DNA from: a bacterium | GTDB taxonomy: Archaea; Thermoplasmatota; E2; JACPAO01; JAHFTW01 | Direction of reading: 5' to 3' | DNA length: 64,000 bases | NCBI GenBank assembly: GCA_040390065.1 | Contig: JAZJZE010000001.1 | Location: 1 to 64,000, forward strand | Shown here: positions 21,339-29,339 of the stretch, in pieces | Layout of the letters: each line of letters begins with the position of its first letter | Position numbering within the stretch: position 1 is the first letter of the stretch | The notes under the pieces: model-generated | The model's database searches: none | Seen by the model: the letters and a program-made list of their open reading frames with translations, nothing else | Told to the model about the DNA's origin: nothing | Program-made: the position numbers and the translations under genes

Positions 21339-21923
21339 TCAGCGCTTGGCCGCTTCTTCGCAGATCCGGACGAAGTTGCCGATCATCTGCACGCCGGCTT
21401 GCGTGTGCTCCACTTCGGGGTGGAAGGACATGCCAAAGAGCGGCTTCGAGTTGTGGCGCATCACCTGGACGGGGCATTTCTCGGAGCGTGCCAGGATCTT
21501 GAAGTCCGGCGGCAGGCGCGACACCTCGTCGTGGTGGCTGGCCCAAACGACCGTCTTCTTGGGCACGTTGCGCAGGATGTCGTCCTCTTCCAGGACTTCC
21601 ATCTCGACCATGCCGAATTCAGCGCCTTCCTTGCCGGGCGCCGCCTCGCCGCCGAAGTGCCGCGCCATGAACTGGTGGCCGGCGCACACGCCAAGGAACG
21701 GGACCTTGAGCTTGTCGAGGTAGGTTCCGACTTCGCCCAACTTGCCGTCGAGTCCGATGCGCGCAGCGCCGCCGGAGAGCATGATGCCGTCGACGTTGGC
21801 GGCTTCGAGCTCGGTCACGGGCGTGGTGTTCTCGACAATCTGGGTGTCCTGCTTGAGGTAGCGAAGGACGCGCCACTCGCGGTGGGTCCACTGGCTGCCG
21901 TTGTTGACCACCCAGATTCGCAT
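21339..21923 (-). CDS. guaAA: GMP synthase glutamine amidotransferase subunit A
   Basis: QWTHREWRVLRYL, GVCAGHQ, SHHDEV, FHPEV. Confidence 0.93.
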   Translation of the reverse strand: MRIWVVNNGSQWTHREWRVLRYLKQDTQIVENTTPVTELEAANVDGIMLSGGAARIGLDGKLGEVGTYLDKLKVPFLGVCAGHQFMARHFGGEAAPGKEGAEFGMVEMEVLEEDDILRNVPKKTVVWASHHDEVSRLPPDFKILARSEKCPVQVMRHNSKPLFGMSFHPEVEHTQAGVQMIGNFVRICEEAAKR

Positions 21924-21986
21924 GGATGCGGGAGGAAGGGAGCCCAGAAAAAAGGAGGGGTTCGCCTCCGGCAGGAAAGGAATGAG

Positions 21987-22228
21987 GGTCGCCGCTGCCC
22001 AGTCTCGTAACGCGGCCCTTCATCCCGACCTGCAAACAGGTCGATCATTTGGGCAGCGGGGTCTTGCGACCCCGCGGACCGGCGGGGGGCTCTGCCCCCC
22101 GCCCTTTTCCCCCCGCCGGGGGGCTGCCGCCCCCCTGGCCCCCCTGCAGGGCTGCCGCTCGGTCCCGTATCAGGGTACGGAGGGGAAATGGTCGCCGCTG
22201 CCCAGTCTCGTAACGCGGCCCTTCATCC
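21987..22228. repeat. Perfect 39-bp direct repeat (21987-22025 and 22190-22228) flanking a 164-bp stack of GC hairpins
   Basis: ggtcgccgctgcccagtctcgtaacgcggcccttcatcc occurs twice. Confidence 0.95.
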
Positions 22229-22549
22229 AATCCCGATGACGGGACAGTCGGACCCTTGACCCGAAACTGGCAAACCGGGTCCCGAAGCCGTCCTCCGAAG
22301 AGGCAGCAGAGGCGACGGGCCGGCGGCCTTGTGGCGTGTTCGCGGCGTTGTCTGGAACGAGGTTGTCTCCCCCTCACGGCATGACGACGCGCCAGAGGCT
22401 CGGGGGAGGGCCGCCCCAAAAGAGGGGCATCGCACCAGGTTTCCGGCCGAAGCCGGGATGGGCCGAAGCCCTGTTGCCCAACCTTTGCGCACCCCGTCAC
22501 AGACCGCCGAAGCGGACTAAGGGGTGCCTTCGGGTCGGGCAAGTTCTCC
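22190..22549 (-). ncRNA. Candidate large structured ncRNA of unknown family
   Basis: At least four C(UUCG)G-capped stems on the minus strand, long-range helices, no credible ORF, TATA-like box near 22570. Confidence 0.6.
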
Positions 22550-22600
22550 TACGGACCCCTCCTCCTTATCCTTTATTGCCCGGGGTGGGCGTCTGCCGGT

Positions 22601-22927
22601 GTGGCCGACTGGAAGGACGCGGTCCAGGAGGCACCAGGAGGCGTGCGGCTGCTGCTCGAAGTGACCGCCGGCGCCAAGGAGATGCGTTTCCCTGACGGCT
22701 TCAACCCGTGGCGCGACGGGCGCATCGGCATCCGGGTGCGTGCCCCCGCCCAGGAGGGCCGCGCCAACGAGGACGTCATTCGCGTGCTGGCCGCGTTCTT
22801 CGGGCACCCGACGGCGCGCATCCACATCGAGGCCGGGCAAAGCGATTCGCGCAAGAGCGTCCGACTGATGGGGATCGACCGCGCAGAGGCCGTGGCCGGA
22901 CTTTCATCCTTCATGGTGGAAAAATGA
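22601..22927 (+). CDS. DUF167 (YggU/UPF0235) protein
   Basis: VRAPAQEGRANE...GQSDSRK; probably leaderless, TATA-like ctttattg at 22571. Confidence 0.85.
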   Translation: MADWKDAVQEAPGGVRLLLEVTAGAKEMRFPDGFNPWRDGRIGIRVRAPAQEGRANEDVIRVLAAFFGHPTARIHIEAGQSDSRKSVRLMGIDRAEAVAGLSSFMVEK

Positions 22928-23346
22928 GGCGGCGCGGTTGGATCCGTTCGGGCGGCGGCGGGGTCGATGGCACGCGCCTGGAACGCCTTGAGTCCGCCGT
23001 CGACCAACTGCGCGAGGCCGCCGAATACGGCACGGTCGTCGTGGAGGGTGCCCGCGATCTCGCCGCCCTTGAGTGGATGGGCGTCGGCGGCTTGCACTAC
23101 GTCATCAACCAAGGGCGGCCCTTCGATGCCATCCTGGAAGATTTGGCCCAAAGTCCGGCCCCCGTGGTCCTCCTGGTGGATTGGGACCGCACGGGGGGTC
23201 GCCTGCTGAAGCGGCTAGAGGACAACCTGAAGGCGCGCGTCGCCGTGGATGTCCTGTGCCGGCGGCGGCTGGCGGTCGTCTGCCAGACCCGATGCCTCGA
23301 GGAAGTCCCGGCAGAACTGTCTGCCCTTCGAGGACAGGCCCGCTAG
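22924..23346 (+). CDS. Small TOPRIM-domain protein
   Basis: VVVEG.RD...L and LLVDWDRTG motifs. Confidence 0.85.
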   Translation: MRRRGWIRSGGGGVDGTRLERLESAVDQLREAAEYGTVVVEGARDLAALEWMGVGGLHYVINQGRPFDAILEDLAQSPAPVVLLVDWDRTGGRLLKRLEDNLKARVAVDVLCRRRLAVVCQTRCLEEVPAELSALRGQAR

Positions 23347-24066: not shown

Positions 24067-25536
<1,470 letters not shown>

Positions 25537-25699
25537 ATATCATTCATCATTCGTTAGGCAACGTCGGTGCATTTCGGTGCATCGACCGCGGGCCGCCCGG
25601 GCACATAACGCTCGGATCTTGGTTCACCAGTCTGTCTCGTGCGTGCGGATCCAGCCGACGCGGGTCCATGGACGCAGTCGTCATGACTCGCGCCCCCAT

Positions 25700-25772
25700 G
25701 GGCTCGTATCTCAGCTGGTAGAGAGCCCGCTTTGCAAGCGGGAGGCCTCGGGTTCAAATCCCGACGAGTCCA
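25700..25772 (+). tRNA. tRNA-Ala(TGC), CCA not encoded
   Basis: Cloverleaf with G3:U70 pair, anticodon arm cccgc-tttgcaa-gcggg, T loop ttcaaat. Confidence 0.95.
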
Positions 25773-26015
25773 CTCTCGTCCAAAGGGACCATCGGTCTCT
25801 TCGGGCGAGGGAACCTGGACCTCGAAACAGGTCCGCAACAAATCTGCAACCGATCGAACACGATCGGATGCGGGAACGCCTAGGCTACCCGACAATCGAC
25901 AACCCGGGGAAAGGCCTGCCCAGTGGCAGGAGTGCCGATGATGGCGGTCAGTGATAGGGTCGCATGGGGCGCAAGCCTCGAGCGACTTCCATTTCATTGA
26001 CGTGCATACGCAGCC

Positions 26016-26022
26016 TGGACAA
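26016..26022 (+). other. Bulge-helix-bulge pre-23S processing motif (partner at 29004-29010)
   Basis: tgga-caa pairs with tcca-aaa within a long inverted repeat flanking 23S. Confidence 0.85.
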
Positions 26023-26074
26023 AGCAGAAAGTCGAAGTCAAATTCGCTGAGTGTGAATGAAACTTCAGTAGTGT

Positions 26075-28950
<2,876 letters not shown>

Positions 28951-29076
28951 CACTGTTGAATGCCGATTTCACGCGCAAGCGTATTTGATTTCGGCTTTCT
29001 GCTTCCAAAAGGCTGCGTATGCATCGCATGCTGTCGAGGGCCGTAAGGCTCGCGACGGTGTGTTCACACTTGTGGT

Positions 29077-29193
<117 letters not shown>

Positions 29194-29339
29194 CCACTTC
29201 CCTTCCTTGTCTGCGCAAGCAGGCGGGGGAGGTTGGGGCGTCACGCTTCGGCGCGGCGTCCCTTTGATTCGCTCCAGGCTGCGTCCGCGCGCTTGGATTC
29301 CTGGCCCTTTCGGCCTTTCGCTTCCTCCAGATTCTGGAG

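Follow-up and report, generated by a model that had tools for sequence, protein, structure and literature searches.

The stretch analysed here (the window) comprises 64,000 nucleotides (nt) of an archaeal genome of the Thermoplasmatota (assembly GCA_040390065.1, contig JAZJZE010000001.1, positions 1 to 64,000), and the element in question is a structured RNA gene on its minus strand. The gene lies between guaAA, which follows it on the same strand, and a divergent pair of protein genes, beyond which stands the ribosomal RNA (rRNA) operon. The first-pass annotation, made from the letters alone, had proposed a functional, strand-specific structured RNA at 22190-22549, coordinates that are correct to within a few bases. 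We read this RNA, with a probability of about 0.82, as an expanded, multi-module box H/ACA guide small RNA (sRNA); it looks like an oversized form of a known class and not like a new ribozyme or switch. The positions of its modules, of the features around it and of its predicted rRNA targets are given in Table 1.

Table 1. Modules of the structured RNA, surrounding features and predicted rRNA targets, in window positions.
Feature	Position	Strand	Evidence	Remark
Structured RNA gene	~22190-22542	-	covariation and homologue alignment	length ~345-355 nt
B recognition element (BRE)/TATA-like element	22564-22580	-	sequence reading	AAUAAAGGAUAAGG; the 5' hairpin begins ~25 nt downstream
H1	22472-22541	-	covariation; model R2, 88.5 bits	H/ACA-like hairpin
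P2	22460-22471	-	fold and alignment	small hairpin GGGC-UUCG-GCCC
P3	22443-22456	-	fold and alignment	hairpin CCGGC-UUCG-GCCGG
H3	22349-22438	-	18 folds, covariation, invariant columns	central domain
P4	22413-22428	-	minimum-energy folds	extra hairpin within the 5' loop strand of H3
3' domain	22193-22347	-	covarying closing pairs, alignment	three-way junction holding arms A and B
Arm A	22275-22323	-	alignment; helices by eye	long irregular hairpin with an asymmetric internal loop
Arm B (module H4)	22200-22271	-	covariation; model R1, 98 bits
Pyrimidine-rich tail	22176-22192	-	sequence reading	GACCAUUUCCCCUCC; after the last helix
Second copy of the RNA 3' end	21987-22025	-	sequence repeat	exact 39 nt (= 22190-22228), 203 nt downstream
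DUF167 gene and overlapping Toprim-like open reading frame (ORF)	22601-23346	+	Pfam scan	61.7 bits; 17.5 bits (sub-threshold)
rRNA operon 16S-tRNA-23S-5S	24067-29195	+	Rfam scan
Predicted target of H4	27987-27999	+		helix 69, GUAAC-UA-UGACCC; U = 23S nt 1926 (window 27992), E. coli U1915
Predicted target of H1	28563-28573	+		23S, UUGC-UA-CUUCG; U = 23S nt 2501 (window 28567), E. coli 2496 position
Candidate target of H3	28620-28630	+	moderately supported	A loop (helix 92), GGUUGU-UC-GCC; U = 23S nt 2560 (or 2559), E. coli U2555 (or U2554)

The RNA at 22190-22542 of the minus strand is real and conserved, and the proposal of a functional, strand-specific structured RNA held. The evidence is comparative and not thermodynamic, because the minimum-energy fold only modestly beats shuffled sequences (z = -2.2 on the minus strand, -1.0 on the plus strand). 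The check for homologues and covariation that had been proposed was run, and compensatory changes support the helices: in an RNAalifold structure of the homologue alignment, 28 of the 55 predicted pairs changed on both sides. Covariation was further counted as paired cells on hand-written structures, with 500 shuffles and with controls in which one partner was slid by 1-3 columns. Paired cells amount to 88.6% in H1 (18 homologues; 12 of 20 pairs double-changed), 87.5% in arm B (17 of 23) and 79.5% in the central domain, H3 (12 of 24), and in each of the three none of the 500 shuffles scored as high; sliding the partners lowers pairing to 28-57%. On a measure of further pair types, shuffles scored as high in 49 of 500 cases for the central domain and in 4 of 500 for H1, the central-domain count being taken from a MAFFT alignment that is one column out of register in part of its rows. 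Minimum-energy folds of the central segment, computed sequence by sequence, agreed in 18 of 18 cases on the closing helix, on hairpin P4 and on the upper hairpin. The stems covary, while the loop strands and the GA/UGA motifs vary little or not at all.

Most of the helices drawn in the first-pass annotation held. Its 5' stem (ttgcccgacc/ggttgggcaa, gcacccc/ggggtgc and ccgc-ttcg-gcgg) is present and covaries in 18 homologues, the ctccccc/gggggag stem is present and covaries as well, and the hairpins gggc-ttcg-gccc, ccggc-ttcg-gccgg and gcccc-tctttt-ggggc are found on the minus strand. Its two long-range pairings gave way to others. For the suggested pseudoknot of tctgg with ccaga only 50.6% of cells are paired, a value at least equalled by 493 of 500 shuffles, and ccag pairs instead with an upstream cugg that closes the central domain. 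A closure of the 3' domain by gtcgcc..gctgcc with ggcagc-ggcgac had also been supposed; the covarying closure is that of GCCGC (22342-22346) with GCGGC (22194-22198). The pairing of CUGCUGCC with the 3' GGCAGC, which belongs to the supposed closure, is not conserved in G005, G006, G007 or family f3.

The same comparison bears on whether the region could instead be a protein-coding gene (ORF 22045-22542, 165 amino acids) or the RNA of a mobile element, for instance an omega RNA, a retron RNA or an intron fragment. A stop-free frame does exist; such frames are uninformative, because in DNA so rich in GC all homologues show stretches of 96-136 amino acids without a stop, whichever strand is read. 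No Pfam family matches the ORF, substitutions counted against the window sequence are spread evenly over its three codon positions (411/406/437, with no periodicity), and length differences among homologues are not multiples of three. The RNA's 3' end is duplicated downstream in four genomes, which suggests recombination and might speak for a mobile element, yet each genome has a single copy of the RNA, whose neighbourhood, with DUF167 and Toprim-like genes, is conserved, and no integrase, transposase or reverse-transcriptase name appeared among the neighbours, the downstream ORFs having been read mostly by eye. A coding or mobile origin is thus very improbable.

In the homologue alignment conservation begins abruptly at UUGCCCG and stops at GGGCAGCGGC. 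The TATA-like box that had been noticed near 22570 corresponds to the element at 22564-22580; A/T-rich BRE/TATA-like boxes lie at the same distance in the aligned homologues, and the element may well act as an archaeal promoter. The pyrimidine tract noticed beyond the 3' end is likewise seen in the sequence, U/C-rich tails follow GCGGC in the homologues also, and the tail is probably the terminator region. Twelve RNA-library runs contain part of the region, and contigs of four of them, from four studies, were compared at 90% likeness. These contigs fall solely inside 22192-22532. One of 344 nt aligns over its full length at ~93% identity, another of 259 nt equals 22268-22527 with one differing letter and one gap, and the remaining ones are evident relatives that share the conserved arms only; a region lacking contig cover in such libraries proves nothing. 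The cover is only a hint of a discrete, abundant RNA, because the contigs give no strand, level or true ends and come from RNA runs only. Single contigs in runs X2 (word depth 172) and X4 (depth 5) match the kink-turn (K-turn) arm only, at 22209-22263, and continue beyond it with sequence like that of another member of the genus (G008-like); relatives of the RNA are therefore present in soil RNA libraries.

None of the library contigs reaches guaAA, a class I glutamine amidotransferase gene by Pfam, with which the first-pass annotation had associated the RNA. Were the RNA a cis-acting 5' leader or riboswitch controlling this gene, its place in the window, with guaAA downstream on the same strand, would be explained, and 7 of 16 loci have that arrangement. 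However, guaAA is convergent in 2 of the 16 and not found within ~1.5 kb in the other 7, which makes cis-regulation unlikely and leaves the association without generality. A U/C-rich tail follows the RNA, the gap to the guaAA start codon in the window is 266 nt and includes a repeat copy, the library contigs stop at 22192 (a weak hint), and the architecture is accounted for by H/ACA modules, so that a leader function has hardly any credibility. At L006 (G007) two tandem guaAA copies, whose proteins are 79% and 66% identical to that of the window, lie ~120-1330 nt downstream of the RNA on the opposite strand and converge on it.

Read from 5' to 3', the RNA is a series of modules. In H1 a lower stem of 9 base pairs (bp; 22533-22541 with 22475-22483) leads to an internal loop of 5+5 nt, CGAAG (22528-22532) opposite GCAAA (22484-22488), followed by an upper stem of 6-7 bp, a GA/GUGA K-turn-like loop with an invariant UGA and an apical CCGC-UUCG-GCGG. 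The ACA at 22472-22474, 14 nt from the loop top, is invariant in 18 of 18 sequences. Where the window has the small hairpin P2, six more distant sequences of other genera hold a full H/ACA-like module, H2, with the loop AAAAC/UACCA, a kink-loop (K-loop) and ACA, and P2 would be a vestige of it. H3 is built on a lower stem CUGG-U-GCGA/UCGU-U-CCAG (8 bp with bulges). Its 5' loop strand CGGCC (22409-22413 region) is interrupted by P4, and its 6-nt 3' loop strand ACAACC (22361-22366) is invariant, within an invariant GACAA. Above these are an upper stem CUCCCCC/GGGGGAG of 7 bp, a GAG/GUGA K-turn-like loop, in which UGC replaces UGA in two genera, and an apical GGCG-CGU-CGUC; the ACA at 22349-22351 is invariant and lies 15 nt from the loop top.

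The 3' domain is closed by C-GCCGC (22342-22347) with GCGGC-G (22193-22198), in which pair 261-425 occurs as GC 5, CG 4 and AU 1 times. Arm A contains a CUGCUG (22304-22309) that is invariant in 17 of 17 sequences and recurs in relatives of families f3 and f9; the arm lacks both a K-turn and an ACA, CUGCUG does not belong to the H/ACA motifs, and the helices were assigned by eye, since MAFFT aligns this arm poorly. Arm B, the module H4, has a lower stem of ~10 bp, an internal loop formed by GGGUCA (22257-22262) and GUUAC (22210-22214), an upper stem of 6 bp, a K-turn-like CCGAC/GGAUGAA in which GAC/GGAUGA is invariant, and an apical hairpin whose loop is UCAU.

This anatomy can be set against the archaeal H/ACA motif, which Muller et al. 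(2008, PMC2377435), in their account of it, describe as a helix 1 of 7 bp or more, an internal loop with 5-11 nt on each strand, a helix 2 of 5-6 bp up to an L7Ae-binding K-turn or K-loop, and an ANA box, mostly ACA, 14-15 nt from a target U that stays unpaired together with its 3' neighbour. The lower helices of H1, H3 and H4 have the lengths of such motifs, as do the loops of H1 and of H4 (6-7 + 6 nt), and the upper helices run to a K-turn pattern after 6-7 bp in H1, 6 bp in H4 and 7 bp in H3, with GA opposite (G/A)UGA in H1 and H4. An ANA box follows H1 and H3 in the window's family and follows H4 in f3. At the level of sequence, H1 has every trait of the motif. In its general description of known members, which states no functional requirement, the review PMC7991803 gives archaeal H/ACA sRNAs mostly one hairpin and rarely two or three; the window RNA goes beyond that count, for besides three modules of H/ACA type it contains P2, P3, P4 and arm A. 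Genes for Cbf5 (414 bits), Nop10 (78.5 bits) and L7Ae (102 bits) are found in the same genome. The anatomy and the complementarity to rRNA fit guide modules better than the ribozyme-like or regulatory RNA that had been proposed at first.

The Rfam covariance scan that had been called for was run and gave no family of Rfam 15 at gathering score, either for 21800-22800 or for nine homologous loci, and scans at E <= 5-10 matched no family to the window RNA. The best sub-threshold match was TB11Cs5H3, a trypanosomatid H/ACA small nucleolar RNA (snoRNA), at 25.2 bits (threshold 50; E = 0.0037); it sits on the 5' hairpin H1 and recurs in one of the nine homologous loci. The earlier suggestion of a possibly undescribed RNA thus stands for the expanded form, which is absent from Rfam, and falls for the class, which is already known. 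Neither RNase P RNA nor signal recognition particle (SRP) RNA is a candidate identity, as the first-pass annotation had judged: full-length copies of both (124.5 and 141.3 bits, respectively) are on other contigs of the same genome. A literature search found no paper on H/ACA RNAs of Thermoplasmata, and one article on H/ACA(-like) RNAs makes no mention of Thermoplasma.

Targets were sought in the window's own rRNAs as U-N flanked by the complements of both loop strands, and their significance was gauged on 200 dinucleotide-shuffled rRNAs. Numbering follows alignment to the annotated E. coli rrl gene, whose numbers are two above standard at both landmarks checked because that gene has 2906 nt. 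H1 loops of six out of six lineages choose the same 23S uridine with 8-14 bp, the pairing reaching 6+8 bp in relatives; shuffles attained the score in 8 of 200 cases for the window guide and in 1 of 200 for that of G036. The H4 cores GGGUCA/GUUAC form 5+6 = 11 Watson-Crick pairs at helix 69, a match found in 0 of 200 shuffles, and the two extra loop bases of H4 pair with each other and covary (pair 22-62: GC 8, AU 7). The A loop is the best H3 match for the guides of f3, f9 and f5 (5, 14 and 2 of 200 shuffles, respectively). In the two relatives whose 23S was found, the rRNA target sequences are identical to those of the window. Another H4 site, at 23S nt 1873, came up with four of five variants and was rejected, since 31-110 of 100-200 shuffles equal it and the guide bases it uses are mutually paired.

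Two further complementarities were observed. CUGCUG of arm A is complementary to GCAGCAG, which precedes the A-loop site of 23S by ~13-18 nt, and to a 16S site; the pairing extends to at most 7-8 bp in either rRNA, and a 6-mer match is expected by chance in 4.5 kb. In f3 (L203/G028 and L204/G026) an extra K-turn hairpin, H2b, is followed by AUA or ACA, and the rRNA site that it matches best, close to 23S nt 1950 and immediately 3' of helix 69, is matched only if 2-3 guide bases stay unpaired.

A number of points weigh against a guide RNA, and they differ from module to module. The window H1 pairs just 4+5 bp with its target, versus 12-14 in the small relatives, and 8 of 200 shuffles equal its score. 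The loop boundaries of H4 were fixed after its invariant core had been seen, and five scans that included the two extra loop bases missed the helix 69 site and gave no significant match; moreover, the two distal bases of the 5' guide vary (GG in 11, AA in 5 and CA in 1 of 17 sequences). H4 is followed by A22199 and then by the closing helix, leaving no ANA box in the window's family; AGC stands in its place, 15 nt past the first guide base. H3 departs from the motif in its upper stem, longer than 5-6 bp, and in the hairpin inserted in its 5' guide strand. Its A-loop pairing is limited to 6+3 bp and needs one guide base at the loop top unpaired, for the window guide a 16S site scores as high as the A loop (46 of 200 shuffles), for G047 the A loop is not the best match, and G035 does not fit. 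H2 and the H2b of f3 found no target among rRNAs, 52 tRNAs, RNase P RNA, SRP RNA and rRNA spacers, and a guide function does not explain arm A, P2 and P3. The K-turns of H1, H3 and H4 were judged from their sequence pattern, Gar1 was not found in this 89%-complete genome by a family model that also missed one of four archaeal controls, and the limits of the library contigs noted above count here as well.

The RNA is widespread among relatives. A blastn search recovered the region from 10 of the 12 other genomes in the genus and from additional genera of the family, and two covariance models, one of arm B (R1) and one of H1 (R2), extended the search. R1 detected arm B in 24 of the family's 31 other genomes and in none of six genomes of the two sister families; R2 detected H1 in the same 24. 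In 25 of the 32 genomes of this Thermoplasmatota family the two matches share contig and strand and are 355-422 nt apart, and the seven genomes with neither match are 71-88% complete. In a class-wide sample of 151 genomes, scanned with Infernal's stricter filters, R2 also matched 2 of 2 genomes in f3, 1 of 4 in f2, 2 of 4 in f8, 1 of 13 in f9, 1 of 25 in f5 and 1 of 68 in f4. A scan of contigs with a degenerate (IUPAC) pattern, which was too loose, gave mostly chance bacterial matches among the best 80 of at least 119 stretches; among the matches listed, the real ones are Thermoplasmatota/Thermoplasmata records and the G004 contig, labelled Halobacteriales.

The size and composition of the RNA vary across these families. 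G036 and G035 carry plain two-hairpin H/ACA sRNAs of ~130-150 nt that end in ACA and a U tract. Their hairpin 1 is found by R2, is colinear with H1 and has the same loop strands and the same target; their hairpin 2 resembles H3, with the 3' guide UCAACC against ACAACC. G089 has a small added 3' domain with CUGCUG. The RNA measures ~350 nt in the window, up to ~420 nt in the family and ~500 nt in the two f3 genomes, where it has five K-turn hairpins; these longest forms comprise H1, H2, a further K-turn hairpin, H3 and a 3' domain, in which arm B has an AUGAUGA K-turn and then ACA.

Among known systems, the nearest in design are Pab40 (Pyrococcus abyssi), Pf7 (P. furiosus) and Afu4 (Archaeoglobus fulgidus), which have several H/ACA motifs per RNA, as the window RNA does, and which are roughly 200 nt long. 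They were compared by published description. In contrast to them, the window RNA has a last module that lacks an ANA box and is nested in a closing helix together with an arm of non-H/ACA type, and it has an extra hairpin in a guide strand and vestigial modules. Homology rests on targets and order only, since neither sequence nor covariance models show likeness to Rfam H/ACA families. In the description of Pab40 in PMC2377435, motif 1 is the guide for 23S Psi2588 and motif 3 the one for Psi2016, which lies in the helix 69 loop (Psi, pseudouridine). The helix 89 guide comes first and the helix 69 guide last, the same order of modules as in the window RNA, whose first and last modules are therefore predicted to aim at the same site or region as the first and last motifs of Pab40. 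P. abyssi numbers appear to exceed E. coli numbers by a constant 92 in domain V, an offset drawn from the statement on Pab35 and RluB/C/E together with the corresponding E. coli positions 2457, 2605 and 2580. By this offset the H1 target would be the Psi2588 position (E. coli 2496).

In yeast, 25S Psi2865, at the E. coli 2496 position, is guided by snR46 and Psi2923, in the A loop (E. coli 2554), by snR10, and the predicted sites of the window RNA lie at or beside these. Eukaryotic H/ACA snoRNAs differ in having two hairpins, H and ACA boxes, no K-turn and a separate RNA for each site. In vertebrate telomerase RNA an H/ACA unit is fused to another structured domain, and the window RNA resembles it in carrying both on one transcript. 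Pab21, listed as H/ACA with or without a C/D motif in PMC2377435, shows the same kind of combination. Neither guide-spaced C/D boxes nor a template-like element were seen in the window RNA, and its extra domain (arm A with the closing helix) has no known counterpart. Haloferax volcanii sR-h45 is described in PMC7075261 as a double-hairpin RNA that guides three 23S pseudouridines; like the two-hairpin RNAs of G036 and G035, and unlike the window RNA, it is without the 3' domain, P4 and arm A.

As an H/ACA guide, the gene would be transcribed from its own archaeal promoter on the minus strand into a single stable non-coding RNA of ~345-355 nt. L7Ae would bind the K-turn of each of the modules H1, H3 and H4, and Cbf5-Nop10, with Gar1 if present, the lower stem and ACA. 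In each internal loop the two strands would pair with the 23S sequences that flank a uridine, and Cbf5 would convert this uridine to pseudouridine: H1 at the E. coli 2496 position in helix 89 (Psi2588 of P. abyssi, made by Pab40 motif 1), H4 at U1915 of helix 69, the loop in which Psi2016 (Pab40 motif 3) lies, and H3, less certainly, at U2554/2555 of the A loop. The RNA appears to have grown from an ordinary two-hairpin H/ACA sRNA, of the kind still present in related families, by the addition, nesting and partial degradation of modules, with P4 as an insertion, arm A as a non-H/ACA addition and P2 as what is left of H2.

Arm A, the nested last module without ACA and the vestigial hairpins remain unexplained by guiding, which leaves room for a role as scaffold or in assembly. 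In yeast, snR30/U17, and snR10 in part of its role, act as pre-rRNA chaperones by base-pairing. The window RNA might similarly be a structural or assembly RNA bound by L7Ae that descends from H/ACA guides, has itself given up guiding wholly or in part, and serves in pre-rRNA folding or processing. The vestigial P2, the H2 without a target, the loss of ACA from H4 in the window's family, the mere 9 bp kept by the window H1 and the CUGCUG of arm A would suit such an RNA, and its gene adjoins the window's rRNA operon, on the strand opposite to the 16S gene and ~1.5 kb upstream of it, and lies near a 16S gene in two other loci. However, the loops of H1 and H4 are invariant and exactly complementary to two classic guided pseudouridine sites, and ACA is invariant after H1 and H3, so that we hold this replacement of guiding to be doubtful. 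Slightly less doubtful, though still unlikely, is a scaffold that brings several Cbf5-Nop10-L7Ae units to the nascent 50S core at helix 69, helix 89 and the A loop, in which arm A with its CUGCUG, the closing helix that takes the place of the H4 ACA and the orphan modules could form an rRNA-folding or tethering element. Such a scaffold would be an archaeal counterpart of the assembly snoRNAs snR30 or snR10, and the gain, nesting and decay of its modules would record guide RNAs becoming assembly factors.

The surroundings of the gene show both constancy and rearrangement. The DUF167 and Toprim-like genes, divergent from the RNA, keep their position across genera in most of the 16 loci, and the gene order RNA, DUF167, Toprim, 16S is conserved. 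Downstream frames, read by eye in the 16 loci, include guaAA and response-regulator-like and histidine-kinase-like sequences. The segment 21987-22070, which begins with the exact repeat of the RNA 3' end, scores as a weak, degenerate arm B (R1: 31.4 bits, E = 6.4e-4). Pieces of the 3' end, 18-49 nt long, are likewise repeated 70-620 nt downstream in L016 1501-1549 (G004), L024 (G041) and L027 (G044), and the distal copy of G004 is closer to the window's version than to G004's own. By analogy, the repeated 3' ends look like the attL/attR scars left by integrative elements at tRNA genes; no obvious integrase was seen in stop-free frames within 1.5 kb downstream in the 16 loci, which were read by eye without a Pfam scan. 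Between the RNA and the repeat, positions 22074-22160 of the minus strand are of extreme G+C content with long runs of G and C and a palindrome (GGCCCCCCTGCAGG/CCTGCAGGGCTGCC), and Rfam matches there are at chance level only.

Archaeal H/ACA guides appear as small RNAs in the account given by the review PMC7991803, and here the form extends to 350-500 nt with up to five K-turn hairpins. It includes an ACA-less module nested in a three-way junction, an insertion in a guide strand and an extra conserved arm. Across families the RNAs form a graded series, from two hairpins through a mini 3' domain to the expanded forms, in which the modular growth and decay of guide RNAs can therefore be read directly. 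The two covariance models and the alignment offer a starting point for a new RNA family. The RNA predicts guided pseudouridines at three sites central to the ribosome in an uncultured lineage of soil and groundwater Thermoplasmatota.

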